A stretch of 64,000 nt of DNA. Origin: an uncultured candidatus Porisulfidus sp. GTDB lineage: Bacteria > Pseudomonadota > Gammaproteobacteria > Poriferisulfidales > Poriferisulfidaceae. The notes beneath the pieces were generated by a model, which saw only the letters and a program-made list of their open reading frames with translations, was not told the origin of the DNA and did no database searches. Positions 19,080-44,351 of this stretch are shown piece by piece. The position numbers were made by a program, and so were the translations under genes. The first letter of the stretch is position 1. Every line of letters starts with the position of its first letter. The stretch covers positions 532,297 through 596,296 of the forward strand of contig OY764335.1 of NCBI GenBank assembly GCA_963668445.1. The letters run 5' to 3'.

Positions 19080-20239
19080 ATGATTTCCAAAGAGATTCGG
19101 CATAAGTTGAATCAAGAGAAAATCTCCAAGAGAAAAAGGAGGCATATGTATAGAAAAATCTCAAAACTATTGCGCAGGTTCAACAACATATTGGAACAAA
19201 GGCAGGCGTCGGCCAATCGGGCTTTGGGCGAAGTCAAAGGCCGGGCTGCCAGCATCCCCAATCAGGATATTCTGATTGATACGTTGGTATTGCAGGAAGC
19301 GTGTTCCAGTTCTGAAATCGAAAACATTGTGACCAGACAAGATGAATTATTTCGGGCGGATAGCGGACCTCAGGTTTCGGATTCTCCGGAAGCCAAAGCA
19401 GTCTTGCGCTACCGAGTGGCTTTCAAAGAAGGGTACCAACTTCTGCAAAAGCATGGAAACATCACGAATGAGACGCTAATCACAATGTACCGCCGGATTA
19501 AACTTGCGGATGACAGATTTCGCAAGAAGCCTGTTTATATCGGCAATCCTGCAATGCAGGAGATCATCTGCACGCCGCCCAAAGATCCTGCGGAGATTCA
19601 AGAATTGATGAACGGTCTTGAACGCTTTATCAATGACGATGCCATGAGTGTGCTGGACCCATTAATAAAAATGGCTCTCATCCATTACCAGTTCGAAAGC
19701 ATTCACCCGTTCTCGGATGGCAACGGGCGCGTCGGACGCATCCTCAATATGCTATACCTCACGAAATCGAAGTTGCTTGACAATCCCATTTTGTATCCGA
19801 GCCGAATGATTGCGCAGACCAAAGAACGGTACTACCGGCTCTTCACCGAAGTGCGGGAGCAGGAGGCGTGGCATGAATGGGTGGCCTACATGCTGGGCAT
19901 CGTCGAGCAGTCCGCGCACTCTTCGCTGCATATGGTCTCGCGCATTCGCGAGTTGATGGCCGAATACGAAAATCGAATTCGCGGGCAATTTGGATCCTAC
20001 TCGCAGGATTTGCTCAATAATCTGTTTCGCCACCCCTATTCGCGCGTGGCGCATCTGAACATGACCTCGGAGTCGCGAGGCTGACCGCGACTCGTTATCT
20101 GGATGCGCTGGCAGATGCAGGACTTCTGGAAAAGCGTCGCGTGGGCCGGAGCAACTACTACATCAATCTGCCTCTGGTCGAGATTTTCACGGAAATCTCG
20201 CATCGCTCGGATCCGGGCCAATTCATGCGAATCACGTGA
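19080..20239 (+). pseudogene. fic: Fic/DOC-family protein, class II, with a Fic_N domain. The gene is frameshifted near 20055-20085 and its C-terminal winged-helix domain continues in the +2 frame to 20239.
   Basis: Fic motif HPFSDGNGRVGR. The Fic_N region is IDTLVLQEACSSSEIENIVTRQDELF, which includes an inhibitory (S/T)xxxE(G/N) motif. Frame 0 stops at 20084. Frame +2 encodes LTATRYLDALADAGLLEKRRVGRSNYYINLPLVEIFTEI, the typical Fic C-terminal wHTH. The gene lies in a lower-GC islet. An alternative start is the ATG at 19146. Confidence 0.6.
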
Positions 20240-28124: not shown

Positions 28125-29711
28125 TTGATGCCCCTGAATCCGCGGCTTTTCCAAGCGCGCTTGGATGCGATGCGCACTTCTGGCGTGCGAGCGGAATTGC
28201 GCGACATCCGAATCGGCTTGGAGCGCGAAGCCTTGCGCGTGGATGCGGAAGCGAATTTGAGTCGGCGTCCACACCCCCCGGAACTGGGTGCAGCTCTGAC
28301 GCACTCCTACATCACGACGGATTACTCCGAGGCGATGCTTGAACTGATTACGCCGCCGGGCCGTCTGGACGAAACGCATGCCTTCCTCGCCGAACTTCAT
28401 CGCTATGCCTACGGCCACCTAGGCGGGGAGAATTTGTGGTGCGGGAGCATGCCCTGCGTGATTGCGGGCGACCCGGACATTCCGCTGGCGCGCTATGGGG
28501 AATCCAATGCCGGGCTCATGAAGACCGTTTACCGCCGCGGGCTCGGCTACCGCTATACCCGATCCATGCAGGTCATCGCCGGCCTGCATTTCAATTGCTC
28601 CATGCCGGACGGTTTCTGGCGGCACGAACAAGGCGGCGTGCCGGATCGTCCGGCGGTCTCCGAACGCTATTTCGGCGTGCTGCGCAATCTGCTGCGGTTC
28701 GGTTGGCTGGTCGCCTACCTGTGGGGCGCCTCGCCAGCGACCTGCCGGCGTTTTCTGGCCCGCAATCCCAGCGACTACGAGCTGGAATCCTTTACGCCGG
28801 GGACGTATTACGGCCCGTATGCCACATCGCTGCGGCTGGGGGGCATCGGCTACCAAAACAATTTGGGAGCCAGCACCGGCGTGCAGGCCGATTACAACAG
28901 TTTGGCCGGCTATATCCGGAGTCTGGAGCGGGCGACGAGCACGCCGTGCCCGGCCTACGAGCGCATCGGGGTGCGACAGGCGGACAAGTACCTGCAACTG
29001 AACGCGAACCGGCTGCAGATCGAAAACGAGTTCTACAGTTCGGTGCGCCCGAAATGCGTCCCGCACGGCAACGAGCGGCCGATTCGCGCGTTCCGGATGC
29101 GCGGTGTGGAATACGTGGAACTGCGTGCGCTGGACATCAACCCGTTCGAGCCTTGCGGCATCGATCGGACGGCGATGCGGTTTTTGACGGCACTGATCGT
29201 CTATTGCCTTTTGGATGACAGCCCCGACATGTCCGAAGCCGAGCAGCAGGAGGCGCATGGCAACATGCAGTGGGTCGCGCAGCGCGGGCGAGGTTCGGGC
29301 ATGATGCTGGAGCGCAGCGGCGCGGCTGTGGCGTTGCGCGATTGGGCGGAAGAATTGCTGAAGGACATCCGGCCGGTCTGCGCGCTCTTGGACGACGCGT
29401 ACGGGCAGGCGCATTTCGCCCAAGCTTGGCGGCAGCAGCAGAATCGCGTACGGGATGTGACGCAGACCTTGTCCGCGAAGATGGTGGAGGATATGCGGAT
29501 GCATGGCGAGGGCTATGTGGAATGGGTGCTGGCCCGTTCGCAAGCGCATCGAGAGTTCTTCATGCGGCAGCCTCCGGATGCGGCCCTGAACGCGCGGTTG
29601 GATCGGATGGCCGTGCAGTCGCATGTGCAGCAGCAGGCGATGGAAGCGGCGGAACGTGAGACGCCGATGTCGTTCGAGGACTATTTAGCGGCGTACGAGG
29701 CGCGGCGATGA
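28125..29711 (+). CDS. gshA: Glutamate--cysteine ligase (proteobacterial GshA type).
   Basis: About 525 aa with ...LEREALRV...; length and N-terminal pattern match E. coli-type GshA. Confidence 0.85.
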   Translation: MMPLNPRLFQARLDAMRTSGVRAELRDIRIGLEREALRVDAEANLSRRPHPPELGAALTHSYITTDYSEAMLELITPPGRLDETHAFLAELHRYAYGHLGGENLWCGSMPCVIAGDPDIPLARYGESNAGLMKTVYRRGLGYRYTRSMQVIAGLHFNCSMPDGFWRHEQGGVPDRPAVSERYFGVLRNLLRFGWLVAYLWGASPATCRRFLARNPSDYELESFTPGTYYGPYATSLRLGGIGYQNNLGASTGVQADYNSLAGYIRSLERATSTPCPAYERIGVRQADKYLQLNANRLQIENEFYSSVRPKCVPHGNERPIRAFRMRGVEYVELRALDINPFEPCGIDRTAMRFLTALIVYCLLDDSPDMSEAEQQEAHGNMQWVAQRGRGSGMMLERSGAAVALRDWAEELLKDIRPVCALLDDAYGQAHFAQAWRQQQNRVRDVTQTLSAKMVEDMRMHGEGYVEWVLARSQAHREFFMRQPPDAALNARLDRMAVQSHVQQQAMEAAERETPMSFEDYLAAYEARR

Positions 29712-29884
29712 GGAATGATATGAGCCCTCTGGGTTCGTCCAAGCCCGATAGAATCAGATGGATTCATGGGCAGGGCCTTGTTCATGCATGCCCGCTGCCA
29801 ATGTCCGATTGCCCGAAACGTGAGATTCCGGTACGATTGTCGTGAGTTGGGGAGGCGGCTTGAACTGGCTTCGGCGGCGAAAGG

Positions 29885-32800
29885 TCAGAACATCAGTTCG
29901 ATTTTCAGATGGATGCTCAAGCCATTTGCCTCGTTGCTGGCGGCATGTTCGCCGAACACATCCGCGCGCCATTGCGCCATGGCGCCTGTCTCGCGCCCGA
30001 ACCGCACACCCAATCGCATTTTCGAGAGGTCGCTGCTGTGTTCCGCCTTGCCAAACCACTCGATCGGCCGCCTCAGCCACGGCGACCACATGCCGTATCC
30101 GACTTCCACTCCCATGGCTGCGGATTCATTCGGTGCTGATCGATCAGCCAGATCGGCGGCGTTCTCCTCCCACATCGTGGACGAGCTGTCGGTTGGCGCG
30201 CCCCATCGCGGGGACAGCATCAGGGACAGCCCGCGACCGTCCGCGTCTGGATTTTTCTTCAGCGTCACACTCACGCCCCGTTCTTCGTAGTCGCTCTCGG
30301 AATGTGCTGCCAGCCATCGCCCTTGTACATCCAGTGCCCAGCCGTCGACCACACTTTCGAAATACATGCCGCCGGCCAATTCCAGCCCGACTCCTTCGGA
30401 CCCGTTGCCACCATCGTAGCGGGCAAACGCCTGCGCGTACGGATTCGTGAAGTTGCCAGCCTCGTCCTCGATTGTCCGGGAATATTCCATTCCGGCACGG
30501 ACCTGATGCGCATTCGCTGTCAGGTCGTCAATCTCCAGAATCTCGCCATCGGCTTCCAGCTGGACGTATCCGGCATCGGCCATCAGTGCCCAGCGATGGT
30601 CCTTCCGCTCCGATTCCCCGAGTTCTCGGCGCAAGCCCACCGAAGCCATCTGCATCGATAGGTCTCTGTGCTCGGAATCCGCGCTGTCCATGCCGCTACG
30701 CAAGCTCTCCAATTCGATATCCCCCTCGCCTGCGCCCAGCATCATCCAAACCCCTACACCATCTCCCAAGTCCACATGGGCGTAAGGATGCACACTGGTC
30801 AGTTTCATCTCCATCGTGCCCGACCCGTTTAGACCTTGCTCGCCGAAAGAATAATCCGAATGCGCCCGACGATGCGATACCGCAACTCCGGCGATCCATT
30901 GTTTCTGAATGCGGGCATCAACGCCTACGTAGAACGAGCGCATGTCGCTTTCGTAATGGCCATTGCCATTGATTTCACCGGAGCTTTCCGTGTAGTCGCC
31001 CTGACCCCAGACGCTCCATTGCGCATGCGACGCTTCACTGCCCGCATTGAGGGAGAAGTCAAAAGTGCTTTCCAACAACCATTCGGTTGTGCTGATGCGA
31101 GAGCCCTCGTCCGTTACCGAGCCTGCTTTGAACCTTTCGATAACATCTAACGCGGCTGGCTGCGTCAAGGTTCGACGGTCGGATTCCGATGTGTCTGGCT
31201 CCAGTCCGGCCATACGAATCACGTCGTCGGGCGGCTTCGCAAACCTCCAATTTAGCACTTGCTGCGTACTTGCCATCATGCTGCCTGCGATTTGGCTCAA
31301 GGAGGCTTCCAAGACTGCCTTTTCCTCAATGGTATCTGTTTGCACCGCGATGGTAAAGGCGGCGGCGGCACTGTTGCCGTCGGCGTCGGTGGCGGTGTAG
31401 GTGTAGCCGGTGGCGGCCTGGGTGCCGCTGGGGGTGCCGGACAGGGTGCGGGTGGCGGCGTCGAAGCTCAGCCCGGGGGGCAGCGCCGGGGTGCCGCTGG
31501 TGCGCGCCAGCGCGTAGCTGAGCGCGCCGTTGCCGCCGCTGGCCAGCGGCAACGCCAAGTCCGTGATTCTGCGGCCTCGTGCATACACCTGGTCGGCAAT
31601 TGTGTCGTTCAAGGTTGGAGGGCCCAAGGGGGGGCTCTCTATAGATTCCTGCACCATGATGGTGAAGGTGGCGGTGGCGGCGTCGCCGTCGGCGTCGGTG
31701 GCGGTGTAGGTGTAGCCGGTGGCGGCCTGGGTGCCGCTGGGGGTGCCGGACAGGGTGCGGGTGGCGGCGTCGAAGCTCAGCCCGGGGGGCAGCGCCGGGG
31801 TGCCGCTGGTGCGCGCCAGCGCGTAGCTGAGCGCGCCGTTGCCGCCGGTCGCGGCCGGCAGCACCAGATCGGTGATCGGGCGGCCCTCGGAGTAGGCCTG
31901 GTCGGACGGCGCGGTCACGGCGGGCTGGCTGTTGGACTCGACCGCGAGGCTGAAGGTCGCCGAGTCGGTCTCGCCGTCGGCGTCGGTGACCGCGTACTTC
32001 AGGCTGGCGGTGGCGGCGCTGCCCGGCGTGGTGCCGGACAGGGTGCGGGTGGCGGCGGCGAACGACAGCCAGGCGGGCAGCGCGGTGCCGTCTTCCTTGG
32101 TCAGCGCGTAGCTCAGCGGGGCGTTGCCGCCGGTGGCGGCCGGCAGCTGGTGCGAGACGCTGCGCCCGGTGCCGTAGGTGAGGCCGGCCTGGGACGGCAG
32201 GTCCGGGGCGCTGTTCGCGGCCACCGCGATGGTGAAGGTGGCGGTGGCGGCGTCGCCGTCGGCGTCGGTGGCGGTGTAGGTGTAGCCGGTGGCGGCCTGG
32301 GTGCCGCTGGGGGTGCCGGACAGGGTGCGGGTGGCGGCGTCGAAGCTCAGCCCGGGGGGCAGCGCCGGGGTGCCGCTGGTGCGCGCCAGCGCGTAGCTGA
32401 GCGCGCCGTTGCCGCCGGTCGCGGCCGGCAGCACCAGATCGGTGATCGGGCGGCCCTCGGAGTAGGCCTGGTCGGACGGCGCGGTCACGGCGGGCTGGCT
32501 GTTGGACTCGACCGCGAGGCTGAAGGTCGCCGAGTCGGTCTCGCCGTCGGCGTCGGTGACCGCGTACTTCAGGCTGGCGGTGGCGGCGCTGCCCGGCGTG
32601 GTGCCGGACAGGGTGCGGGTGGCGGCGGCGAACGACAGCCAGGCGGGCAGCGCGGTGCCGTCTTCCTTGGTCAGCGCGTAGCTCAGCGGGGCGTTGCCGC
32701 CGGTGGCGGCCGGCAGCTGGTGCGAGACGCTGCGCCCGGTGCCGTAGGTGAGGCCGGCCTGGGACGGCAGGTCCGGGGCGCTGTTCGCGGCCACCGCGAT

Positions 32801-35800
32801 GGTGAAGGTGGCGGTGGCGGCGTCGCCGTCGGCGTCGGTGGCGGTGTAGGTGTAGCCGGTGGCGGCCTGGGTGCCGCTGGGGGTGCCGGACAGGGTGCGG
32901 GTGGCGGCGTCGAAGCTCAGCCCGGGGGGCAGCGCCGGGGTGCCGCTGGTGCGCGCCAGCGCGTAGCTGAGCGCGCCGTTGCCGCCGGTCGCGGCCGGCA
33001 GCACCAGATCGGTGATCGGGCGGCCCTCGGAGTAGGCCTGGTCGGACGGCGCGGTCACGGCGGGCTGGCTGTTGGACTCGACCGCGAGGCTGAAGGTCGC
33101 CGAGTCGGTCTCGCCGTCGGCGTCGGTGACCGCGTACTTCAGGCTGGCGGTGGCGGCGCTGCCCGGCGTGGTGCCGGACAGGGTGCGGGTGGCGGCGGCG
33201 AACGACAGCCAGGCGGGCAGCGCGGTGCCGTCTTCCTTGGTCAGCGCGTAGCTCAGCGGGGCGTTGCCGCCGGTGGCGGCCGGCAGCTGGTGCGAGACGC
33301 TGCGCCCGGTGCCGTAGGTGAGGCCGGCCTGGGACGGCAGGTCCGGGGCGCTGTTCGCGGCCACCGCGATGGTGAAGGTGGCGGTGGCGGCGTCGCCGTC
33401 GGCGTCGGTGGCGGTGTAGGTGTAGCCGGTGGCGGCCTGGGTGCCGCTGGGGGTGCCGGACAGGGTGCGGGTGGCGGCGTCGAAGCTCAGCCCGGGGGGC
33501 AGCGCCGGGGTGCCGCTGGTGCGCGCCAGCGCGTAGCTGAGCGCGCCGTTGCCGCCGGTCGCGGCCGGCAGCACCAGATCGGTGATCGGGCGGCCCTCGG
33601 AGTAGGCCTGGTCGGACGGCGCGGTCACGGCGGGCTGGCTGTTGGACTCGACCGCGAGGCTGAAGGTCGCCGAGTCGGTCTCGCCGTCGGCGTCGGTGAC
33701 CGCGTACTTCAGGCTGGCGGTGGCGGCGCTGCCCGGCGTGGTGCCGGACAGGGTGCGGGTGGCGGCGGCGAACGACAGCCAGGCGGGCAGCGCGGTGCCG
33801 TCTTCCTTGGTCAGCGCGTAGCTCAGCGGGGCGTTGCCGCCGGTGGCGGCCGGCAGCTGGTGCGAGACGCTGCGCCCGGTGCCGTAGGTGAGGCCGGCCT
33901 GGGACGGCAGGTCCGGGGCGCTGTTCGCGGCCACCGCGATGGTGAAGGTGGCGGTGGCGGCGTCGCCGTCGGCGTCGGTGGCGGTGTAGGTGTAGCCGGT
34001 GGCGGCCTGGGTGCCGCTGGGGGTGCCGGACAGGGTGCGGGTGGCGGCGTCGAAGCTCAGCCCGGGGGGCAGCGCCGGGGTGCCGCTGGTGCGCGCCAGC
34101 GCGTAGCTGAGCGCGCCGTTGCCGCCGGTCGCGGCCGGCAGCACCAGATCGGTGATCGGGCGGCCCTCGGAGTAGGCCTGGTCGGACGGCGCGGTCACGG
34201 CGGGCTGGCTGTTGGACTCGACCGCGAGGCTGAAGGTCGCCGAGTCGGTCTCGCCGTCGGCGTCGGTGACCGCGTACTTCAGGCTGGCGGTGGCGGCGCT
34301 GCCCGGCGTGGTGCCGGACAGGGTGCGGGTGGCGGCGGCGAACGACAGCCAGGCGGGCAGCGCGGTGCCGTCTTCCTTGGTCAGCGCGTAGCTCAGCGGG
34401 GCGTTGCCGCCGGTGGCGGCCGGCAGCTGGTGCGAGACGCTGCGCCCGGTGCCGTAGGTGAGGCCGGCCTGGGACGGCAGGTCCGGGGCGCTGTTCGCGG
34501 CCACCGCGATGGTGAAGGTGGCGGTGGCGGCGTCGCCGTCGGCGTCGGTGGCGGTGTAGGTGTAGCCGGTGGCGGCCTGGGTGCCGCTGGGGGTGCCGGA
34601 CAGGGTGCGGGTGGCGGCGTCGAAGCTCAGCCCGGGGGGCAGCGCCGGGGTGCCGCTGGTGCGCGCCAGCGCGTAGCTGAGCGCGCCGTTGCCGCCGGTC
34701 GCGGCCGGCAGCACCAGATCGGTGATCGGGCGGCCCTCGGAGTAGGCCTGGTCGGACGGCGCGGTCACGGCGGGCTGGCTGTTGGACTCGACCGCGAGGC
34801 TGAAGGTCGCCGAGTCGGTCTCGCCGTCGGCGTCGGTGACCGCGTACTTCAGGCTGGCGGTGGCGGCGCTGCCCGGCGTGGTGCCGGACAGGGTGCGGGT
34901 GGCGGCGGCGAACGACAGCCAGGCGGGCAGCGCGGTGCCGTCTTCCTTGGTCAGCGCGTAGCTCAGCGGGGCGTTGCCGCCGGTGGCGGCCGGCAGCTGG
35001 TGCGAGACGCTGCGCCCGGTGCCGTAGGTGAGGCCGGCCTGGGACGGCAGGTCCGGGGCGCTGTTCGCGGCCACCGCGATGGTGAAGGTGGCGGTGGCGG
35101 CGTCGCCGTCGGCGTCGGTGGCGGTGTAGGTGTAGCCGGTGGCGGCCTGGGTGCCGCTGGGGGTGCCGGACAGGGTGCGGGTGGCGGCGTCGAAGCTCAG
35201 CCCGGGGGGCAGCGCCGGGGTGCCGCTGGTGCGCGCCAGCGCGTAGCTGAGCGCGCCGTTGCCGCCGGTCGCGGCCGGCAGCACCAGATCGGTGATCGGG
35301 CGGCCCTCGGAGTAGGCCTGGTCGGACGGCGCGGTCACGGCGGGCTGGCTGTTGGACTCGACCGCGAGGCTGAAGGTCGCCGAGTCGGTCTCGCCGTCGG
35401 CGTCGGTGACCGCGTACTTCAGGCTGGCGGTGGCGGCGCTGCCCGGCGTGGTGCCGGACAGGGTGCGGGTGGCGGCGGCGAACGACAGCCAGGCGGGCAG
35501 CGCGGTGCCGTCTTCCTTGGTCAGCGCGTAGCTCAGCGGGGCGTTGCCGCCGGTGGCGGCCGGCAGCTGGTGCGAGACGCTGCGCCCGGTGCCGTAGGTG
35601 AGGCCGGCCTGGGACGGCAGGTCCGGGGCGCTGTTCGCGGCCACCGCGATGGTGAAGGTGGCGGTGGCGGCGTCGCCGTCGGCGTCGGTGGCGGTGTAGG
35701 TGTAGCCGGTGGCGGCCTGGGTGCCGCTGGGGGTGCCGGACAGGGTGCGGGTGGCGGCGTCGAAGCTCAGCCCGGGGGGCAGCGCCGGGGTGCCGCTGGT

Positions 35801-38800
35801 GCGCGCCAGCGCGTAGCTGAGCGCGCCGTTGCCGCCGGTCGCGGCCGGCAGCACCAGATCGGTGATCGGGCGGCCCTCGGAGTAGGCCTGGTCGGACGGC
35901 GCGGTCACGGCGGGCTGGCTGTTGGACTCGACCGCGAGGCTGAAGGTCGCCGAGTCGGTCTCGCCGTCGGCGTCGGTGACCGCGTACTTCAGGCTGGCGG
36001 TGGCGGCGCTGCCCGGCGTGGTGCCGGACAGGGTGCGGGTGGCGGCGGCGAACGACAGCCAGGCGGGCAGCGCGGTGCCGTCTTCCTTGGTCAGCGCGTA
36101 GCTCAGCGGGGCGTTGCCGCCGGTGGCGGCCGGCAGCTGGTGCGAGACGCTGCGCCCGGTGCCGTAGGTGAGGCCGGCCTGGGACGGCAGGTCCGGGGCG
36201 CTGTTCGCGGCCACCGCGATGGTGAAGGTGGCGGTGGCGGCGTCGCCGTCGGCGTCGGTGGCGGTGTAGGTGTAGCCGGTGGCGGCCTGGGTGCCGCTGG
36301 GGGTGCCGGACAGGGTGCGGGTGGCGGCGTCGAAGCTCAGCCCGGGGGGCAGCGCCGGGGTGCCGCTGGTGCGCGCCAGCGCGTAGCTGAGCGCGCCGTT
36401 GCCGCCGGTCGCGGCCGGCAGCACCAGATCGGTGATCGGGCGGCCCTCGGAGTAGGCCTGGTCGGACGGCGCGGTCACGGCGGGCTGGCTGTTGGACTCG
36501 ACCGCGAGGCTGAAGGTCGCCGAGTCGGTCTCGCCGTCGGCGTCGGTGACCGCGTACTTCAGGCTGGCGGTGGCGGCGCTGCCCGGCGTGGTGCCGGACA
36601 GGGTGCGGGTGGCGGCGGCGAACGACAGCCAGGCGGGCAGCGCGGTGCCGTCTTCCTTGGTCAGCGCGTAGCTCAGCGGGGCGTTGCCGCCGGTGGCGGC
36701 CGGCAGCTGGTGCGAGACGCTGCGCCCGGTGCCGTAGGTGAGGCCGGCCTGGGACGGCAGGTCCGGGGCGCTGTTCGCGGCCACCGCGATGGTGAAGGTG
36801 GCGGTGGCGGCGTCGCCGTCGGCGTCGGTGGCGGTGTAGGTGTAGCCGGTGGCGGCCTGGGTGCCGCTGGGGGTGCCGGACAGGGTGCGGGTGGCGGCGT
36901 CGAAGCTCAGCCCGGGGGGCAGCGCCGGGGTGCCGCTGGTGCGCGCCAGCGCGTAGCTGAGCGCGCCGTTGCCGCCGGTCGCGGCCGGCAGCACCAGATC
37001 GGTGATCGGGCGGCCCTCGGAGTAGGCCTGGTCGGACGGCGCGGTCACGGCGGGCTGGCTGTTGGACTCGACCGCGAGGCTGAAGGTCGCCGAGTCGGTC
37101 TCGCCGTCGGCGTCGGTGACCGCGTACTTCAGGCTGGCGGTGGCGGCGCTGCCCGGCGTGGTGCCGGACAGGGTGCGGGTGGCGGCGGCGAACGACAGCC
37201 AGGCGGGCAGCGCGGTGCCGTCTTCCTTGGTCAGCGCGTAGCTCAGCGGGGCGTTGCCGCCGGTGGCGGCCGGCAGCTGGTGCGAGACGCTGCGCCCGGT
37301 GCCGTAGGTGAGGCCGGCCTGGGACGGCAGGTCCGGGGCGCTGTTCGCGGCCACCGCGATGGTGAAGGTGGCGGTGGCGGCGTCGCCGTCGGCGTCGGTG
37401 GCGGTGTAGGTGTAGCCGGTGGCGGCCTGGGTGCCGCTGGGGGTGCCGGACAGGGTGCGGGTGGCGGCGTCGAAGCTCAGCCCGGGGGGCAGCGCCGGGG
37501 TGCCGCTGGTGCGCGCCAGCGCGTAGCTGAGCGCGCCGTTGCCGCCGGTCGCGGCCGGCAGCACCAGATCGGTGATCGGGCGGCCCTCGGAGTAGGCCTG
37601 GTCGGACGGCGCGGTCACGGCGGGCTGGCTGTTGGACTCGACCGCGAGGCTGAAGGTCGCCGAGTCGGTCTCGCCGTCGGCGTCGGTGACCGCGTACTTC
37701 AGGCTGGCGGTGGCGGCGCTGCCCGGCGTGGTGCCGGACAGGGTGCGGGTGGCGGCGGCGAACGACAGCCAGGCGGGCAGCGCGGTGCCGTCTTCCTTGG
37801 TCAGCGCGTAGCTCAGCGGGGCGTTGCCGCCGGTGGCGGCCGGCAGCTGGTGCGAGACGCTGCGCCCGGTGCCGTAGGTGAGGCCGGCCTGGGACGGCAG
37901 GTCCGGGGCGCTGTTCGCGGCCACCGCGATGGTGAAGGTGGCGGTGGCGGCGTCGCCGTCGGCGTCGGTGGCGGTGTAGGTGTAGCCGGTGGCGGCCTGG
38001 GTGCCGCTGGGGGTGCCGGACAGGGTGCGGGTGGCGGCGTCGAAGCTCAGCCCGGGGGGCAGCGCCGGGGTGCCGCTGGTGCGCGCCAGCGCGTAGCTGA
38101 GCGCGCCGTTGCCGCCGGTCGCGGCCGGCAGCACCAGATCGGTGATCGGGCGGCCCTCGGAGTAGGCCTGGTCGGACGGCGCGGTCACGGCGGGCTGGCT
38201 GTTGGACTCGACCGCGAGGCTGAAGGTCGCCGAGTCGGTCTCGCCGTCGGCGTCGGTGACCGCGTACTTCAGGCTGGCGGTGGCGGCGCTGCCCGGCGTG
38301 GTGCCGGACAGGGTGCGGGTGGCGGCGGCGAACGACAGCCAGGCGGGCAGCGCGGTGCCGTCTTCCTTGGTCAGCGCGTAGCTCAGCGGGGCGTTGCCGC
38401 CGGTGGCGGCCGGCAGCTGGTGCGAGACGCTGCGCCCGGTGCCGTAGGTGAGGCCGGCCTGGGACGGCAGGTCCGGGGCGCTGTTCGCGGCCACCGCGAT
38501 GGTGAAGGTGGCGGTGGCGGCGTCGCCGTCGGCGTCGGTGGCGGTGTAGGTGTAGCCGGTGGCGGCCTGGGTGCCGCTGGGGGTGCCGGACAGGGTGCGG
38601 GTGGCGGCGTCGAAGCTCAGCCCGGGGGGCAGCGCCGGGGTGCCGCTGGTGCGCGCCAGCGCGTAGCTGAGCGCGCCGTTGCCGCCGGTCGCGGCCGGCA
38701 GCACCAGATCGGTGATCGGGCGGCCCTCGGAGTAGGCCTGGTCGGACGGCGCGGTCACGGCGGGCTGGCTGTTGGACTCGACCGCGAGGCTGAAGGTCGC

Positions 38801-41800
38801 CGAGTCGGTCTCGCCGTCGGCGTCGGTGACCGCGTACTTCAGGCTGGCGGTGGCGGCGCTGCCCGGCGTGGTGCCGGACAGGGTGCGGGTGGCGGCGGCG
38901 AACGACAGCCAGGCGGGCAGCGCGGTGCCGTCTTCCTTGGTCAGCGCGTAGCTCAGCGGGGCGTTGCCGCCGGTGGCGGCCGGCAGCTGGTGCGAGACGC
39001 TGCGCCCGGTGCCGTAGGTGAGGCCGGCCTGGGACGGCAGGTCCGGGGCGCTGTTCGCGGCCACCGCGATGGTGAAGGTGGCGGTGGCGGCGTCGCCGTC
39101 GGCGTCGGTGGCGGTGTAGGTGTAGCCGGTGGCGGCCTGGGTGCCGCTGGGGGTGCCGGACAGGGTGCGGGTGGCGGCGTCGAAGCTCAGCCCGGGGGGC
39201 AGCGCCGGGGTGCCGCTGGTGCGCGCCAGCGCGTAGCTGAGCGCGCCGTTGCCGCCGGTCGCGGCCGGCAGCACCAGATCGGTGATCGGGCGGCCCTCGG
39301 AGTAGGCCTGGTCGGACGGCGCGGTCACGGCGGGCTGGCTGTTGGACTCGACCGCGAGGCTGAAGGTCGCCGAGTCGGTCTCGCCGTCGGCGTCGGTGAC
39401 CGCGTACTTCAGGCTGGCGGTGGCGGCGCTGCCCGGCGTGGTGCCGGACAGGGTGCGGGTGGCGGCGGCGAACGACAGCCAGGCGGGCAGCGCGGTGCCG
39501 TCTTCCTTGGTCAGCGCGTAGCTCAGCGGGGCGTTGCCGCCGGTGGCGGCCGGCAGCTGGTGCGAGACGCTGCGCCCGGTGCCGTAGGTGAGGCCGGCCT
39601 GGGACGGCAGGTCCGGGGCGCTGTTCGCGGCCACCGCGATGGTGAAGGTGGCGGTGGCGGCGTCGCCGTCGGCGTCGGTGGCGGTGTAGGTGTAGCCGGT
39701 GGCGGCCTGGGTGCCGCTGGGGGTGCCGGACAGGGTGCGGGTGGCGGCGTCGAAGCTCAGCCCGGGGGGCAGCGCCGGGGTGCCGCTGGTGCGCGCCAGC
39801 GCGTAGCTGAGCGCGCCGTTGCCGCCGGTCGCGGCCGGCAGCACCAGATCGGTGATCGGGCGGCCCTCGGAGTAGGCCTGGTCGGACGGCGCGGTCACGG
39901 CGGGCTGGCTGTTGGACTCGACCGCGAGGCTGAAGGTCGCCGAGTCGGTCTCGCCGTCGGCGTCGGTGACCGCGTACTTCAGGCTGGCGGTGGCGGCGCT
40001 GCCCGGCGTGGTGCCGGACAGGGTGCGGGTGGCGGCGGCGAACGACAGCCAGGCGGGCAGCGCGGTGCCGTCTTCCTTGGTCAGCGCGTAGCTCAGCGGG
40101 GCGTTGCCGCCGGTGGCGGCCGGCAGCTGGTGCGAGACGCTGCGCCCGGTGCCGTAGGTGAGGCCGGCCTGGGACGGCAGGTCCGGGGCGCTGTTCGCGG
40201 CCACCGCGATGGTGAAGGTGGCGGTGGCGGCGTCGCCGTCGGCGTCGGTGGCGGTGTAGGTGTAGCCGGTGGCGGCCTGGGTGCCGCTGGGGGTGCCGGA
40301 CAGGGTGCGGGTGGCGGCGTCGAAGCTCAGCCCGGGGGGCAGCGCCGGGGTGCCGCTGGTGCGCGCCAGCGCGTAGCTGAGCGCGCCGTTGCCGCCGGTC
40401 GCGGCCGGCAGCACCAGATCGGTGATCGGGCGGCCCTCGGAGTAGGCCTGGTCGGACGGCGCGGTCACGGCGGGCTGGCTGTTGGACTCGACCGCGAGGC
40501 TGAAGGTCGCCGAGTCGGTCTCGCCGTCGGCGTCGGTGACCGCGTACTTCAGGCTGGCGGTGGCGGCGCTGCCCGGCGTGGTGCCGGACAGGGTGCGGGT
40601 GGCGGCGGCGAACGACAGCCAGGCGGGCAGCGCGGTGCCGTCTTCCTTGGTCAGCGCGTAGCTCAGCGGGGCGTTGCCGCCGGTGGCGGCCGGCAGCTGG
40701 TGCGAGACGCTGCGCCCGGTGCCGTAGGTGAGGCCGGCCTGGGACGGCAGGTCCGGGGCGCTGTTCGCGGCCACCGCGATGGTGAAGGTGGCGGTGGCGG
40801 CGTCGCCGTCGGCGTCGGTGGCGGTGTAGGTGTAGCCGGTGGCGGCCTGGGTGCCGCTGGGGGTGCCGGACAGGGTGCGGGTGGCGGCGTCGAAGCTCAG
40901 CCCGGGGGGCAGCGCCGGGGTGCCGCTGGTGCGCGCCAGCGCGTAGCTGAGCGCGCCGTTGCCGCCGGTCGCGGCCGGCAGCACCAGATCGGTGATCGGG
41001 CGGCCCTCGGAGTAGGCCTGGTCGGACGGCGCGGTCACGGCGGGCTGGCTGTTGGACTCGACCGCGAGGCTGAAGGTCGCCGAGTCGGTCTCGCCGTCGG
41101 CGTCGGTGACCGCGTACTTCAGGCTGGCGGTGGCGGCGCTGCCCGGCGTGGTGCCGGACAGGGTGCGGGTGGCGGCGGCGAACGACAGCCAGGCGGGCAG
41201 CGCGGTGCCGTCTTCCTTGGTCAGCGCGTAGCTCAGCGGGGCGTTGCCGCCGGTGGCGGCCGGCAGCTGGTGCGAGACGCTGCGCCCGGTGCCGTAGGTG
41301 AGGCCGGCCTGGGACGGCAGGTCCGGGGTTAGCCTCAGTGGCGTTGCTTTTGCTGTATCTGAAGGGGGGCTGCCACCGGTCGAATTCACCGCACGAATCT
41401 GAAAGGAGTATTCCACCCCGGTGGTCAAGTTGCCAACCGTGTGGCTTGTGGTATTTGCTCCGCTTTTGTTGATATTTCCCCAGATCTCGAATACGCTATC
41501 CGTTTCGGTCTTTTTCCGTATTTGGTATGTCGTAATGTTCGTGTCGGACGGATCCGTCCATTCGAGCAAGACCTGCTGATCGCCTGCAGTGGCCGCGAAG
41601 CCGCTCGGTTTCGCCGGCCTCGGCCTCGGTGTCACCGACACCTCGTCCGATTCTGTGCCATTGCCCACTGGGTTGACCGCTCTGATCTTGAACGTGTATT
41701 GGGTTCCGCTGGTCAATCCGGTGACCGTGTGGCTTGTGGTGGTCGCGCTGCTGGAGCCGATATCCGTCCACCCGCCATAATTGTTCGAGCCTTCTTTTTG

Positions 41801-42895
41801 CCGGTACTGGTATTTCGAAATGCTTGCGTTGGACGGATTGGTCCATCCCAAGAACACCCGAGTTCCATCAAGTGCTTGTGCGGTGAAATTGCTTGGTTTG
41901 CCCGGTGCCGTCAGATTCGCCATTACTGTAGATGAAGAACCAGCACCCGCTGGATTCACTGCACGGAGTTGAAACGTATATTCCGTCTCATTGGTCAATC
42001 CGGTGATCGTGTGGCTTGTGGTGGTTGCGCTGCTGGAGCCGATATCCGTCCATACGCCATAATTGTTTGAGCCTTCTTTTTGCCGGTACTGGTATTTCGA
42101 AATGGTTGTGTCCGACGGATCCGTCCATTTCAATGCCACGCTCTGATTGCCTACTGTCGCGGCAAGGTTGGTCGGGGCCGCTGGCGGAGGCGTTGCCGTT
42201 GCTGTTGCTTCATCCGATTCCAGCCCATCGCCGACTGAGTTGACCGCTCTGATCTTGAACGTGTATTGGGTTCCGTTGGTCAATCCGGTGACCGTGTGGG
42301 TCGTGGTGGTCGCGCTGCTGGAGCCGATATCCGTCCATCCGCCGTAATTGTTCGAGCCTTCCTTTTGCCGGTACTGGTATTTCGAAATGGTTGTGTCCGA
42401 CGGATCCGTCCATTTCAAGTTCATGCTTTTGTCAGCCGGCGTCACGGTGAAGTCGGTTGGTTTGTCCGGCGATGCCGACATGGAAACCGAGTTGGAGCCT
42501 AGGGAGAGTCCGCAGGATGATGATGTATGTTTAAGCCAATTGCTGTCTTTTGTGAACGATGACAGGTTCATGGTGTTGGTGCCGATCTTGACTTTCACGT
42601 CAGCGGTTTTCAGGTTGTTCGGATCCTTATTGAACTGGATCCAGCATTGGCCAGAAGATTGGAAAAAGTCTTTTATTTCGTATGTGGTCCCCCGGAAATC
42701 AAAATCGTCATCGCTTAAACTCCCATATGTGATGATGAGTGTGCTGTATCCTAGAGAATTGCCGAAACCCTGTGCTGCATTTAACGTGGCACTCCAGAAG
42801 AGTCCTGAATTGGCCGCGTATGTCGGTCGCGCTTCTCCTGTCAGTAGCACTGCAAGCAGCAATAAGAGATGTACTGCCTTGGGTTCCTTGCACAT
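29885..42895 (-). CDS. Giant (about 4336 aa) secreted repeat adhesin. Order: signal peptide, FN3-like modules, 17 tandem copies of a 190-aa double He_PIG/'putative Ig' unit, then a C-terminal autotransporter-like beta-barrel.
   Basis: Signal peptide MCKEPKAVHLLLLLAVLLTGEARPTYA/AN. Repeated motif LPxGLSFDAATRTLSGTP. The C-terminal 400 aa have alternating hydrophobic beta-strand patterning (AQWSVWGQGDY...), are Gly/aromatic-rich and end ...HLKIELMF. The start was moved from the ORF-track 43090 to the ATG at 42895, ahead of the signal peptide. Confidence 0.85.
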   Translation of the reverse strand: MCKEPKAVHLLLLLAVLLTGEARPTYAANSGLFWSATLNAAQGFGNSLGYSTLIITYGSLSDDDFDFRGTTYEIKDFFQSSGQCWIQFNKDPNNLKTADVKVKIGTNTMNLSSFTKDSNWLKHTSSSCGLSLGSNSVSMSASPDKPTDFTVTPADKSMNLKWTDPSDTTISKYQYRQKEGSNNYGGWTDIGSSSATTTTHTVTGLTNGTQYTFKIRAVNSVGDGLESDEATATATPPPAAPTNLAATVGNQSVALKWTDPSDTTISKYQYRQKEGSNNYGVWTDIGSSSATTTSHTITGLTNETEYTFQLRAVNPAGAGSSSTVMANLTAPGKPSNFTAQALDGTRVFLGWTNPSNASISKYQYRQKEGSNNYGGWTDIGSSSATTTSHTVTGLTSGTQYTFKIRAVNPVGNGTESDEVSVTPRPRPAKPSGFAATAGDQQVLLEWTDPSDTNITTYQIRKKTETDSVFEIWGNINKSGANTTSHTVGNLTTGVEYSFQIRAVNSTGGSPPSDTAKATPLRLTPDLPSQAGLTYGTGRSVSHQLPAATGGNAPLSYALTKEDGTALPAWLSFAAATRTLSGTTPGSAATASLKYAVTDADGETDSATFSLAVESNSQPAVTAPSDQAYSEGRPITDLVLPAATGGNGALSYALARTSGTPALPPGLSFDAATRTLSGTPSGTQAATGYTYTATDADGDAATATFTIAVAANSAPDLPSQAGLTYGTGRSVSHQLPAATGGNAPLSYALTKEDGTALPAWLSFAAATRTLSGTTPGSAATASLKYAVTDADGETDSATFSLAVESNSQPAVTAPSDQAYSEGRPITDLVLPAATGGNGALSYALARTSGTPALPPGLSFDAATRTLSGTPSGTQAATGYTYTATDADGDAATATFTIAVAANSAPDLPSQAGLTYGTGRSVSHQLPAATGGNAPLSYALTKEDGTALPAWLSFAAATRTLSGTTPGSAATASLKYAVTDADGETDSATFSLAVESNSQPAVTAPSDQAYSEGRPITDLVLPAATGGNGALSYALARTSGTPALPPGLSFDAATRTLSGTPSGTQAATGYTYTATDADGDAATATFTIAVAANSAPDLPSQAGLTYGTGRSVSHQLPAATGGNAPLSYALTKEDGTALPAWLSFAAATRTLSGTTPGSAATASLKYAVTDADGETDSATFSLAVESNSQPAVTAPSDQAYSEGRPITDLVLPAATGGNGALSYALARTSGTPALPPGLSFDAATRTLSGTPSGTQAATGYTYTATDADGDAATATFTIAVAANSAPDLPSQAGLTYGTGRSVSHQLPAATGGNAPLSYALTKEDGTALPAWLSFAAATRTLSGTTPGSAATASLKYAVTDADGETDSATFSLAVESNSQPAVTAPSDQAYSEGRPITDLVLPAATGGNGALSYALARTSGTPALPPGLSFDAATRTLSGTPSGTQAATGYTYTATDADGDAATATFTIAVAANSAPDLPSQAGLTYGTGRSVSHQLPAATGGNAPLSYALTKEDGTALPAWLSFAAATRTLSGTTPGSAATASLKYAVTDADGETDSATFSLAVESNSQPAVTAPSDQAYSEGRPITDLVLPAATGGNGALSYALARTSGTPALPPGLSFDAATRTLSGTPSGTQAATGYTYTATDADGDAATATFTIAVAANSAPDLPSQAGLTYGTGRSVSHQLPAATGGNAPLSYALTKEDGTALPAWLSFAAATRTLSGTTPGSAATASLKYAVTDADGETDSATFSLAVESNSQPAVTAPSDQAYSEGRPITDLVLPAATGGNGALSYALARTSGTPALPPGLSFDAATRTLSGTPSGTQAATGYTYTATDADGDAATATFTIAVAANSAPDLPSQAGLTYGTGRSVSHQLPAATGGNAPLSYALTKEDGTALPAWLSFAAATRTLSGTTPGSAATASLKYAVTDADGETDSATFSLAVESNSQPAVTAPSDQAYSEGRPITDLVLPAATGGNGALSYALARTSGTPALPPGLSFDAATRTLSGTPSGTQAATGYTYTATDADGDAATATFTIAVAANSAPDLPSQAGLTYGTGRSVSHQLPAATGGNAPLSYALTKEDGTALPAWLSFAAATRTLSGTTPGSAATASLKYAVTDADGETDSATFSLAVESNSQPAVTAPSDQAYSEGRPITDLVLPAATGGNGALSYALARTSGTPALPPGLSFDAATRTLSGTPSGTQAATGYTYTATDADGDAATATFTIAVAANSAPDLPSQAGLTYGTGRSVSHQLPAATGGNAPLSYALTKEDGTALPAWLSFAAATRTLSGTTPGSAATASLKYAVTDADGETDSATFSLAVESNSQPAVTAPSDQAYSEGRPITDLVLPAATGGNGALSYALARTSGTPALPPGLSFDAATRTLSGTPSGTQAATGYTYTATDADGDAATATFTIAVAANSAPDLPSQAGLTYGTGRSVSHQLPAATGGNAPLSYALTKEDGTALPAWLSFAAATRTLSGTTPGSAATASLKYAVTDADGETDSATFSLAVESNSQPAVTAPSDQAYSEGRPITDLVLPAATGGNGALSYALARTSGTPALPPGLSFDAATRTLSGTPSGTQAATGYTYTATDADGDAATATFTIAVAANSAPDLPSQAGLTYGTGRSVSHQLPAATGGNAPLSYALTKEDGTALPAWLSFAAATRTLSGTTPGSAATASLKYAVTDADGETDSATFSLAVESNSQPAVTAPSDQAYSEGRPITDLVLPAATGGNGALSYALARTSGTPALPPGLSFDAATRTLSGTPSGTQAATGYTYTATDADGDAATATFTIAVAANSAPDLPSQAGLTYGTGRSVSHQLPAATGGNAPLSYALTKEDGTALPAWLSFAAATRTLSGTTPGSAATASLKYAVTDADGETDSATFSLAVESNSQPAVTAPSDQAYSEGRPITDLVLPAATGGNGALSYALARTSGTPALPPGLSFDAATRTLSGTPSGTQAATGYTYTATDADGDAATATFTIAVAANSAPDLPSQAGLTYGTGRSVSHQLPAATGGNAPLSYALTKEDGTALPAWLSFAAATRTLSGTTPGSAATASLKYAVTDADGETDSATFSLAVESNSQPAVTAPSDQAYSEGRPITDLVLPAATGGNGALSYALARTSGTPALPPGLSFDAATRTLSGTPSGTQAATGYTYTATDADGDAATATFTIAVAANSAPDLPSQAGLTYGTGRSVSHQLPAATGGNAPLSYALTKEDGTALPAWLSFAAATRTLSGTTPGSAATASLKYAVTDADGETDSATFSLAVESNSQPAVTAPSDQAYSEGRPITDLVLPAATGGNGALSYALARTSGTPALPPGLSFDAATRTLSGTPSGTQAATGYTYTATDADGDAATATFTIAVAANSAPDLPSQAGLTYGTGRSVSHQLPAATGGNAPLSYALTKEDGTALPAWLSFAAATRTLSGTTPGSAATASLKYAVTDADGETDSATFSLAVESNSQPAVTAPSDQAYSEGRPITDLVLPAATGGNGALSYALARTSGTPALPPGLSFDAATRTLSGTPSGTQAATGYTYTATDADGDAATATFTIAVAANSAPDLPSQAGLTYGTGRSVSHQLPAATGGNAPLSYALTKEDGTALPAWLSFAAATRTLSGTTPGSAATASLKYAVTDADGETDSATFSLAVESNSQPAVTAPSDQAYSEGRPITDLVLPAATGGNGALSYALARTSGTPALPPGLSFDAATRTLSGTPSGTQAATGYTYTATDADGDAATATFTIMVQESIESPPLGPPTLNDTIADQVYARGRRITDLALPLASGGNGALSYALARTSGTPALPPGLSFDAATRTLSGTPSGTQAATGYTYTATDADGNSAAAAFTIAVQTDTIEEKAVLEASLSQIAGSMMASTQQVLNWRFAKPPDDVIRMAGLEPDTSESDRRTLTQPAALDVIERFKAGSVTDEGSRISTTEWLLESTFDFSLNAGSEASHAQWSVWGQGDYTESSGEINGNGHYESDMRSFYVGVDARIQKQWIAGVAVSHRRAHSDYSFGEQGLNGSGTMEMKLTSVHPYAHVDLGDGVGVWMMLGAGEGDIELESLRSGMDSADSEHRDLSMQMASVGLRRELGESERKDHRWALMADAGYVQLEADGEILEIDDLTANAHQVRAGMEYSRTIEDEAGNFTNPYAQAFARYDGGNGSEGVGLELAGGMYFESVVDGWALDVQGRWLAAHSESDYEERGVSVTLKKNPDADGRGLSLMLSPRWGAPTDSSSTMWEENAADLADRSAPNESAAMGVEVGYGMWSPWLRRPIEWFGKAEHSSDLSKMRLGVRFGRETGAMAQWRADVFGEHAASNEANGLSIHLKIELMF
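31640..41335. repeat. Seventeen nucleotide-identical tandem repeats of 570 bp inside the giant adhesin gene. A divergent partial copy lies at each end.
   Basis: Sequence blocks 570 nt apart are character-for-character identical; for example the lines at 32221 and 33361 continue identically across the whole array. Each unit encodes DLPSQAGLTYGTGRSV...TFTIAVAANSAP. Confidence 0.9.
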
Positions 42896-42936
42896 GTCCT
42901 GCAACCATTTCTCAATGGCCTTACGACAGGGCCGAT

Positions 42937-42960
42937 GGGGGGGGGGGGGGGGGGGGGGGG
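42937..42960. repeat. Homopolymeric G/C tract, 24 nt, 41 nt upstream of the giant adhesin start codon. Putative phase-variation switch.
   Basis: 24 consecutive G on the plus strand, counted directly. It lies between the adhesin ATG (42895) and the AT-rich upstream region. Confidence 0.8.
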
Positions 42961-43949
42961 CTGTAATGTTAGGAATGCGCCGCCTGCTGCCATTCGCTGG
43001 CCGGGCCGGATCAATGCTGGCCAAAGCCTTCCGGAAATCCATGCGCGCTAAGCCTTCCCGTGAAAAGCGGAGAATTTGCTCTGGCACCAATTGCGCGGGT
43101 TATAATCCATAGAGATAGCATCTCCACTATGTTTGAATTCTTGTTGTGGTTAATGTGGGTTTGTTCGTTACTTTCTGTTATGTATTTATTAGTTACATCA
43201 CATTTTTGCATGCATGTTTAGGTATCTTATAGCAGATTCCCACAATTTGTCAACAACTGCAAGGCAAATGTCAAACCAAAGCCGGAACGACTATGGCGAG
43301 AAAACTAAGACTTCCCCGAAGGTCCAAAGTGTCAGAAGACTCGGATTCGAAGCGTCAAGTCGGTGTTGAGTTTCAAGGACTGGAGACGGATTTGGAGACT
43401 TAAGGCCGCAGGATTCGACTTGTATCCTTCCTGCCATGATTACGTGCGGATGGTCATAATCAATCTATGGATGACTGCATGAGCATGCTTGATCGGACGC
43501 ACGAAACCGTGCATGGCATACATCGGAGCGTATGCCCACAAGGACGGCATCGCCATCGCCCGGGCGCTGTCGGTCGCAATGGGTGGCATCGCCCGTCATT
43601 CCATGAGTCTTTGCCGCGACGTTCACGATACGGGAGGCTTTGTCGAATGCTGCAGTCGAAGTGTCGCGGCCGGTCTGGGGAACCCTTGATCATGTTCCAG
43701 AGTGCCGGAAAATTCCTAGTAGCAAGACGAAAGCAGCTCGCGACGAACGTGTGATCTTGCAGCAGCCAATCCGCACATAGCAACTTGATCAATCATCGTC
43801 ATTAGCAGTGGCACCCTGACTTGGTGCAAACCTCCGCATTCTCCACTACAAGACATGGTATCATGAAATGCTGCATCGCAGAGCTTTCGCCCGACATCGG
43901 CGGAGGTTACGAGCCGGTCACAACATAGCAGCACAATTATTCTCCAACG

Positions 43950-44351
43950 ATGAGCTACTGCATTCTGGACACGCGGGGACTTTGGATTGAGCGCGTTGAG
44001 CAGAGTTCGGAATGCCTGTCGCTGGCCTTTGCGCAGGCGAACATCGAAAAAATCATGGACAATGCAGAACAGCGCACATTGTGGACGCAGGCGGGAGCGC
44101 TTGAAATCTGGACGGCGCAGATGGTGCCGGACCTGCCGGAGGCTCCGTTCGTGATTGCGCATTCGGGTCTGGACGACGGCTTGTACACGCAACGCGACAT
44201 GATTCGCATCCCGATGGATGCTTCGGGGACGGTCGCGATGGAGTTGCAATGCGCGGGGCTGCCGGAGCCTTGGCGCATCGAAGGGGAACGCGTGCGGCTG
44301 CGCTTGGATGGAAACCCGCGCTATGTGCGCCATTTGGAGCCGGAAGCCTAA
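43950..44351 (+). CDS. Hypothetical protein immediately upstream of djlA.
   Basis: 133-aa ORF ending 4 nt before the djlA start. No recognisable motif. Confidence 0.4.
   Translation: MSYCILDTRGLWIERVEQSSECLSLAFAQANIEKIMDNAEQRTLWTQAGALEIWTAQMVPDLPEAPFVIAHSGLDDGLYTQRDMIRIPMDASGTVAMELQCAGLPEPWRIEGERVRLRLDGNPRYVRHLEPEA

Follow-up and report, generated by a model that had tools for sequence, protein, structure and literature searches.

A giant gene with Ig-like arrays and an autotransporter-like barrel

We analysed a 64,000-nt stretch of DNA (the window) from an uncultured candidatus Porisulfidus sp. (contig OY764335.1, positions 532,297 to 596,296). It holds a giant minus-strand gene, between gshA and a 133-aa open reading frame (ORF), for a predicted autotransporter adhesin: a signal-peptide-like segment, a tip domain, four FN3 domains, 35 immunoglobulin (Ig)-like domains of the He_PIG family, a helix with a low-confidence linker, and a beta-barrel (Table 1). 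The last three together occupy residues 3849–4336. The ORF described in the initial annotation is real and has 4336 aa from the ATG chosen there; its strand is corrected here to minus. The frame stays open upstream to ATG 43042 (4385 aa) and on to TTG 43090, the longest frame being 43090..29885. A 4385-aa entry starting at ATG 43042 in a public protein collection (P0079) is 100% identical to the giant protein. A plus-strand ORF of 3357 aa (31259..41332) was rejected as a gene; it is an antisense artefact of the He_PIG array, stop-free because the 9.7-kb repeat has a GC3 (GC content at third codon positions) of 0.99.

By inspection, n-, h- and c-regions can be made out in the segment MCKEPKAVHLLLLLAVLLTGEARPTYA/AN, as can a T-x-A cleavage motif (a T-Y-A/A site). 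The mature protein is ~432 kDa with a pI of 4.4. Its two Cys are both in the tip domain and the rest of the passenger is Cys-free; autotransporter passengers are characteristically poor in Cys.

Pfam fn3 (PF00041) matched four stretches (156.7 bits), and the FN3 ending LT.G..Y.F..RAVN could be read four times in the translation; a stricter regular expression found three copies, the fourth being GNLTTGVEYSFQIRAVN. The number of FN3 modules, previously given as about five, is four by both counts. The first of them was modelled at a predicted local distance difference test (pLDDT) score of 76–93 without an alignment. The Ig-like domains that follow had been recognised as He_PIG-type, correctly, since Pfam He_PIG (PF05345) matched 35 stretches, each significant on its own (cutoff 24; 1229.7 bits overall). 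Their number had been put at 34 and is 35, because the 17 tandem units carry two domains each (A and B) and one hybrid domain terminates the array. Over 97 aligned positions, sub-repeats A and B have the same residue at 49. Every He_PIG domain (residues 525–3851) has the motif TDADG(D/E/N) just ahead of its last strand, which by analogy with other bacterial Ig-like stalks may be a candidate Ca2+ site; the ~20-aa motif around it sums to spurious scores for NCBIfam T1SS_rpt_143 and tandem-95. The whole-protein Pfam table held no beta-helix-specific passenger family, listing He_PIG, fn3, related beta-sandwich families and weak summed matches to unrelated ones.

A C-terminal autotransporter-like barrel had also been proposed, and both profile and structure bear it out. 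When the C-terminal 488 aa were scanned alone, PF03797 (Autotransporter) scored 35.0 bits (curated cutoff 26, E 1.7e-8); the whole-protein scan missed the barrel because the repeats masked it. The two hidden Markov model searches suggested earlier, He_PIG on the repeat and PF03797 on the C-terminus, were thus both positive. The PF03797 match spans profile positions 1–207 of 255 and covers strands 1–9 of the model described below (30395..31012). The same profile was matched by 8 of 10 close relatives. The protein ends in ...LKIELMF, a terminal aromatic beta-signal, and the passenger lies N-terminal to the barrel in one uninterrupted ORF.

An AlphaFold2 (AF2) model of the C-terminus, built with 38 homologues (pLDDT 78, predicted template modelling score 0.75), has a helix, a low-confidence stretch of ~52 aa between this helix and strand 1, and a meander of amphipathic strands. 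DSSP assigned 18 strands of 10–22 residues, with short turns and one disordered 24-residue loop, and 18 of 18 have the alternating hydrophobic pattern of membrane strands. The best fold matches were AIDA-I, Hbp, NalP, EspP, EstA, AaaA and BrkA. Sequence searches of the PDB, run both with the single barrel sequence and with a profile of it, matched no autotransporter; fold comparison alone succeeded. Complete 12-stranded barrels superpose on the model at <3 Å, and we therefore think that it holds a canonical 12-strand barrel plus six further strands. The barrel region is ~115 aa longer than the Pfam model covers, with nine strands beyond the PF03797 match; an excess of ~110–125 residues beyond the 255-position model recurs in 8 of the 8 relatives that match PF03797. 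Internal duplication as the source of the extra strands was rejected: similarity was at hairpin level only, and weak (hhalign P about 4e-4, probability 25–34%). The anatomy of the gene as a whole is not attributable to chance.

Table 1. Features of the giant gene and of its surroundings, in window coordinates
Feature	Coordinates	Strand	Residues (4336-aa form)	GC	GC3	Remarks
Second secreted FN3 gene	1-424	-				Runs off the window's left edge; ATG 424-422, then C23 at 399-421
Left 7-bp direct repeat	29706..29712	+				CGATGAG; includes gshA stop codon
CDS (coding sequence) from the start in the initial annotation	29885..42895	-				ATG 42895, stop 29885-29887; 4336 aa
Beta-barrel translocator region	29888..31066	-		0.58	0.67	Residues 96-488 of the C-terminal 488 aa; 18 amphipathic DSSP strands
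Predicted long alpha-helix, candidate autotransporter linker	31238..31348	-				Residues 2-38 of the C-terminal 488 aa; 37 residues; pLDDT 79-94
35th He_PIG domain	31343..31633	-	~3755-3851			Hybrid; ~160-nt core reads identical to sub-repeat B (by eye); lower-GC unique flanks
He_PIG array	31634..41323	-	525-3754	0.763	0.99	17 x 570 bp, two He_PIG (A, B) each
Four FN3 domains	41324..42472	-	142-524	0.55	0.64	FN3 subtype as in relatives P0080-P0082
Distal tip domain	42473..42814	-	28-141	0.48		Beta-rich; both Cys of the mature protein lie here
Signal-peptide-like segment	42815..42895	-	1-27			MCKEPKAVHLLLLLAVLLTGEARPTYA; by inspection
Signal peptide plus tip				0.48	0.55	
Probable 5' CDS extension	42896..43042	-				MDFRKALAS...; holds the poly-C tract; in frame with the signal peptide; 4385 aa in total
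Homopolymer C24	42937..42960	-				C24 on the coding strand, G24 on +; Pro7 plus flanking codons; between ATG 43042 and the signal peptide
Sigma-70-like promoter match	43224..43253	-				TTGACA-18-TAAGAT, 10/12; consensus match only
Part of the 14.2-kb segment	43100-43947			0.49		~850 bp between the promoter-like site and the right repeat; ORFs of <=110 aa only
Right 7-bp direct repeat	43948..43954	+				CGATGAG; includes ATG of the 133-aa ORF (43950-44351, +)

Identity and composition of the repeat units

Direct comparison gave 17 tandem units with a period of 190 aa (570 bp); Tandem Repeats Finder reported a 288-bp period at 31742–41267 and a 285-bp FN3 array at 41657–42419. The units had been described as 17 identical ones. 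The count stands, as does identity at the DNA level (100%) for units 1–16, while unit 17 is identical over only the first 545 of its 570 nt; periodicity is perfect over 9,665 bp (31659..41323). The B-like core of the 35th domain looks like a gene-conversion tract or footprint.

The array (GC 0.76) differs in composition from the other parts of the gene and from the neighbouring genes, whose GC3 is about 0.75. A He_PIG pair whose composition is foreign or driven by conversion was, we think, amplified very recently within an autotransporter gene that had been acquired earlier. A search for a donor of the GC3-0.99 unit was unsuccessful, the best match in JGI metagenomes being only 46% identical in amino acids; the matching protein, of 1359 aa, is of He_PIG type and did not match an autotransporter at the threshold used.

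Repeat arrays in relatives that share the barrel (see below) are 71–87% identical at the DNA level, so perfect identity here means either a very recent expansion or homogenisation during assembly polishing. If the latter, the gene would be real and its array partly a product of assembly or polishing, with a copy number that differs from 17 or varies among cells and with units that are not strictly identical. The contrast between 9,665 bp of perfect periodicity and the divergence seen in relatives fits such an origin, as does the rarity of the sequence: the protein occurs once only, on a single contig of 1,757,089 bp, an exact look-up of the gene gave no other record, and JGI metagenomes held no close copy beyond the 46% match. 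Harder to reconcile with it are a frame intact over 13 kb, the clean ends of the array, and the discrete B-type tract within the unique flanks of the 35th domain, which is the pattern of real gene conversion. Megabase contigs in this lineage also suggest long reads able to span 10 kb. We consider an array shaped by assembly to be somewhat unlikely.

Poly-C tracts and the translation start

The probable 5' extension of the coding sequence carries a homopolymer of 24 C. At this length the frame is open; with 22, 23, 25 or 26 C, stops arise 39–67 codons after ATG 43042. Homopolymers of ≥8 nt number two in the window, G23 at 399–421 and G24 at 42937–42960 (plus strand), and both are poly-C tracts at the 5' end of secreted FN3 genes. 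The product of the second gene reads M-P8-SLRRRN...RRLAAFFILIAAADCLLPASAA/VPNT..., with a stretch rich in Arg, then a signal peptide, then an FN3 domain that is 33% identical to those of the giant gene. Its ATG abuts C23, and no other ATG, GTG or TTG lies ahead of the hydrophobic core of its signal peptide. The promoter regions of the two genes have nothing in common beyond the tract.

Similar tracts were found at the loci of two relatives. At that of P0080, C12 lies between an ATG and a signal peptide without a start of its own; the two are out of frame as assembled, and 11 or 14 C would give one ORF with a complete signal peptide. Two explanations fit this C12, an OFF phase variant and a homopolymer error. 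The protein at this locus (L082, 626–800) was called from an internal TTG that cuts the signal peptide, the upstream ATG at 626 being out of frame. At the P0204 locus ~195 nt separate a G11 tract from the start downstream of it. Control loci totalling about 1.45 Mb contained no run of G or C of ≥9 nt.

This arrangement points to C24 as a candidate slipped-strand phase-variation switch. Its layout resembles that of contingency genes, which suggests 43042 rather than 42895 as the true start, and a GGGAAGG motif stands 10 nt ahead of ATG 43042; translation probably begins there. At 23–24 nt the tracts are longer than those generally known from Neisseria and Bordetella. Precedents for phase variation by such tracts are the Neisseria meningitidis autotransporters NalP and MspA (PMC3723659) and the tracts of Bordetella pertussis (PMC1891110), in which poly-C or poly-G likewise lies in or by the 5' coding region and a change in length shifts the frame. 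They differ in that the tracts described here are upstream of the signal-peptide core and are predicted to be read as poly-proline, and in that the host belongs to an uncultured, small-genome, gammaproteobacterium-like lineage and is not a known pathogen.

Alternatively, translation starts at ATG 42895 and the tract is no coding switch; it would then lie in the 5' untranslated region, where it modulates transcription or mRNA stability or is inert. That start yields a compact, canonical signal peptide and has AGGA 1 nt upstream, and the G11 of P0204 is itself non-coding. This account leaves unexplained the open frame running from ATG 43042 through the tract, with GGGAAGG before it. It also sits poorly with the second window gene, whose sole possible start abuts its tract, and with the signal peptide of P0080, which can be completed only through the tract. 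We regard it as unlikely.

Relatives sharing the barrel

An exhaustive HMMER search with the barrel, in which counts are of cluster representatives, found 5999 relatives at E≤1e-3; the 652 that reach E≤1e-30 make up a large metagenomic clade. Many relatives have 1000–6155 aa. The relatives' barrels are 33–44% identical to that of the giant gene, and the C-terminal extension is common to them. The next match after the protein itself, P0080 (44% identity, 4942 aa), has 29 fn3 stretches as well as Calx-beta; in P0182 (4147 aa), He_PIG matched 25 stretches; P0204 has 4001 aa and P0218 has 6155 aa. In a set of 27 members above 1100 aa, fn3 was found in 12, He_PIG in 11, SWM_repeat and PKD-like in 6 each, and Big_5, Calx-beta and Cadherin-like in 4 each. 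No beta-helix-specific passenger family was present among the 25 families listed of the 35 found in these 27 proteins. A barrel scan of 185,579 species genomes gave no match.

Because P0182, P0080 and other giants share the barrel, an Ig-array passenger on a classical barrel is not unique to this gene. The passenger had been called unusual; this holds against the characterised autotransporters covered by reviews (PMC6555100, PMC9289746) and fails against metagenomic sequences such as P0182 and P0080. The clade is widespread and, as far as our searches show, its members are without experimental study. Within the searchable literature no paper couples 'autotransporter' with He_PIG, and the sole paper with both 'autotransporter' and PF05345 deals with an RTX (repeats-in-toxin) exoprotein.

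One could go further and propose that the clade, with its hundreds of clusters, constitutes a type V subclass not yet described. A conserved C-terminal block (~115 aa and six amphipathic strands) would take its translocator past 12 strands, an enlargement that would have co-evolved with passengers made up solely of tandem beta-sandwich domains and exported C-to-N, as a mirror of intimin and invasin; in the small-genome lineage studied here, the genes for such fibres would also form a contingency family switched by 12–24-nt poly-C read as poly-proline. We offer this as speculation and consider it unlikely.

At one locus of the clade (L081, 7626–11851) a 792-aa SWM_repeat/Big_5 ORF extends with its last 4 nt into the same-strand gene for the autotransporter P0009 (616 aa, beginning mid-PKD). 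The two are probably one frameshift-split gene. Among the clade members that databases list as 'short', many are likely to be fragments.

A 14.2-kb segment between gshA and orf133

In the closest relative (MetK 91% identical, 1.39-Mb contig) the neighbourhood is conserved gene for gene, running Na/H exchanger, amidase, SelR, gshA, orf133, djlA-like and FAA hydrolase through to metK and ahcY (locus L103). There the gshA stop overlaps orf133 directly, with nothing between; in the window the two genes are 14,242 bp apart, and the closest relative is without the giant gene at this syntenic site. A 7-bp direct repeat marks each edge of the segment (Table 1). The giant gene was probably gained as a ~14-kb insert, to judge from this synteny, the alignment of the junction with its 7-bp repeat, and the mosaic GC along the gene (0.48, 0.55, 0.76 and 0.58).

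Transposon-type ends were rejected, since the segment has no terminal inverted repeats (the local alignment score equals the shuffled mean). No mobility gene was recognised among its listed ORFs, of which only two small upstream ones were scanned against Pfam; ORFs 43467–43754 (+) and 43460–43792 (-) had no Pfam match. No terminator-like site was seen between the convergent gshA and autotransporter genes.

The closest relative has an FN3 autotransporter of its own elsewhere in the genome, split into several ORFs. At this locus (L083, 1–12742, by rpsL-rpsG-fusA) at least five consecutive ORFs lie on the same strand (1668+, 685, 786, 441 and 913 aa), with two small opposite-strand ORFs between the autotransporter fragments. 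It looks like a decaying or frameshifted giant gene.

Proposed route and function

We think it likely that the giant gene encodes a monomeric, outer-membrane-anchored fibrillar adhesin that uses the classical (type Va) autotransporter route. The surface-adhesin interpretation of the initial annotation is supported in this respect, with corrections to strand, FN3 and He_PIG counts, start, the claim of unusualness and lineage. Following the established type Va model, the protein would be exported by Sec, its C-terminal barrel, bearing the terminal Phe beta-signal, would be inserted with the help of the barrel assembly machinery (BAM), and the passenger would be threaded outward C-to-N. Sequential extracellular folding, of the 35 He_PIG domains and then of the four FN3 domains, could supply directionality and driving force. 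The product would be a stalk of ~39 domains, 140–175 nm long by our own estimate of 3.5–4.5 nm per domain, that holds an orphan tip of 114 aa, presumably ligand-binding, away from the cell.

Variation could arise at three levels. Recombination among 9.7 kb of identical units may add or remove repeats and so change stalk length, as in Periscope proteins (PMC9704523). Slipped-strand mispairing at C24 would probably turn translation ON or OFF. The presence of the gene may itself vary, the gene and its promoter region forming a 14.2-kb, compositionally mosaic segment.

Several observations weigh against one or another part of this reading. The start at 43042 would place 49 residues ahead of the signal peptide, and a signal peptide after ~50 residues that include Pro7 is atypical; ATG 42895, just before the signal-peptide core, could bypass the tract and weaken an ON/OFF switch. 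The tract length of 24 comes from one assembly, and homopolymer lengths in assemblies are error-prone. The copy number of 17 and the unit identity come from the same assembly and could be off, as polishing can homogenise repeats, and the 100% identity of the array is an outlier beside the relatives' 71–87%. With its ~115-aa extension, 18 DSSP strands and ~52-aa low-confidence segment, the translocator is maybe not a textbook 12-strand unit. A homologue search with the tip domain detected none; its Pfam matches were marginal only (Big_12 and BACON_2, E about 0.03–0.04), and its single-sequence AF2 model was poor (pLDDT 25–63). The indel at gshA could be a deletion in the closest relative.

Instead of staying anchored, the passenger might be cut at the linker and shed as a matrix, a sheath, an S-layer-like fibre or a decoy. 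Cleavage within or close to the linker helix sets many type Va passengers free (PMC9289746), and the long helix with the ~52-aa disordered stretch before the barrel could hold a processing site. By inspection no known cleavage motif was seen in the helix (such as the Asn-Asn of serine protease autotransporters of Enterobacteriaceae), the neighbouring genes are housekeeping ones (gshA, amidase, djlA-like and similar) with no protease gene nearby, and the tip-stalk-anchor architecture fits anchored fibrillar adhesins (PMC9704523). Release as the main fate seems rather improbable to us.

Membership in another class of giant adhesin, either an RTX adhesin of a type I secretion system (T1SS; LapA, SiiE or MpIBP type) or an inverse (type Ve) autotransporter, is hardly credible: both classes have long tandem Ig-like arrays with identical repeats, and T1SS_rpt_143 accumulates 83 bits (cutoff 66) along the protein, but that score is the ~20-aa motif counted 35 times with no single stretch significant, the Pfam and NCBIfam tables are without an RTX family, no T1SS genes lie nearby, and a putative Sec-type signal is seen at the N-terminus by inspection.

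Comparison with known systems

Like AIDA-I, Ag43 and EstA, the giant protein is a single polypeptide in which a putative N-terminal signal (by inspection) and the passenger are followed by a predicted linker helix and, at the C-terminus, a barrel of the PF03797 family that ends in an aromatic beta-signal. Unlike AIDA-I and Ag43, it has a passenger of 39 beta-sandwich domains and no beta-helix with autochaperone, and its barrel region, with 18 predicted strands, extends ~115 aa past the Pfam model. According to reviews, type Va passengers are beta-helical as a rule, with EstA the lone structural exception, and Ig-like arrays are placed in the Ve class (PMC6555100, PMC9289746). The protein is smaller than the largest autotransporter of a 2012 census, the beta-rich BigE of 10,429 aa (PMC3419190).

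With its clade relatives P0080, P0182, P0204 and P0218 the giant protein shares barrel type, tandem Ig-like passengers and giant size, and with P0080 and P0204 a 5' homopolymer. It differs from them in combining FN3 with He_PIG, in its orphan tip, and in an array that is 100% identical at the DNA level with a GC3 of 0.99.

Type Ve intimins and invasins, with 2–47 bacterial Ig-like (BIg) repeats, resemble it in having a monomeric barrel anchor, a tandem Ig-like stalk and a distal binding domain, and the folding of their Ig domains one after another has been proposed as the driving force of secretion (PMC6555100, PMC9704523). The polarity is different: here the barrel is C-terminal, the tip is N-terminal and export is predicted to run C-to-N. 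No N-terminal barrel of the intimin/invasin type with a C-terminal passenger was found in the giant protein.

Periscope proteins share with it a single chain with a distal domain, a stalk of DNA-identical repeats and a cell anchor (PMC9704523). They are defined by length variation between strains, whereas the giant gene is known from one assembly. The Gram-negative examples named in the review are inverse autotransporters, and repeat-number variation also occurs in the classical autotransporter ShdA (PMC9704523).

Autotransporter biology has been built almost wholly on beta-helical virulence factors of pathogens, and reviews assign the design of a long Ig-like array to inverse autotransporters and T1SS adhesins. 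The giant gene and its clade indicate that uncultured bacteria make wide use of the same type of C-terminal barrel for the display of very long Ig-like arrays. They provide a natural system in which to ask whether vectorial folding of beta-sandwich domains can drive C-to-N secretion and whether a longer barrel is needed for it. The gene would also bring together three mechanisms of surface variation: gain of 14 kb, expansion and homogenisation of a compositionally foreign repeat, and a homopolymer switch. If copy number or tract length proved to be a product of assembly, the point about architecture would hold and the claims about variability would fall.

Lineage and other genes of the window

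The initial annotation had taken the host for betaproteobacterial and free-living. Neither is supported, because the housekeeping proteins GshA and MetK reach no more than 49% and 58% identity with those of named Gammaproteobacteria; close relatives are contigs of 1.39 and 1.64 Mb only. These contigs, the larger possibly circular ('_c'), hint at a reduced genome. In a lineage with contigs of 1.4–1.8 Mb, investment in so large a gene suggests that attachment to a partner or a surface is central to its lifestyle. An origin from a sponge symbiont was considered: some homologues of the barrel bear the names of sponge-associated lineages, and aprAB occurs together with expressed FN3 and cadherin proteins in a gammaproteobacterial symbiont of a sponge (PMC10947273). 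We do not claim such an origin from these data.

The window itself has two separate aprA genes, in the regions 841–4019 and 15671–18227 (975 and 947 bits), and also katG. The first aprA is preceded by an ORF for an AprB-like ferredoxin (1708–2142) and one for a membrane protein (841–1671). This duplicated adenosine 5'-phosphosulfate reductase was likely the basis of the earlier remark on a sulfur oxidiser. No Rfam family was found in the window. A dip in GC to 0.53 at 18001–20084 coincides with a gene for a Fic-type protein adenylyltransferase (19080–20084), whose GC3 is 0.61 against ~0.75 in its neighbours; it may be another acquired gene.

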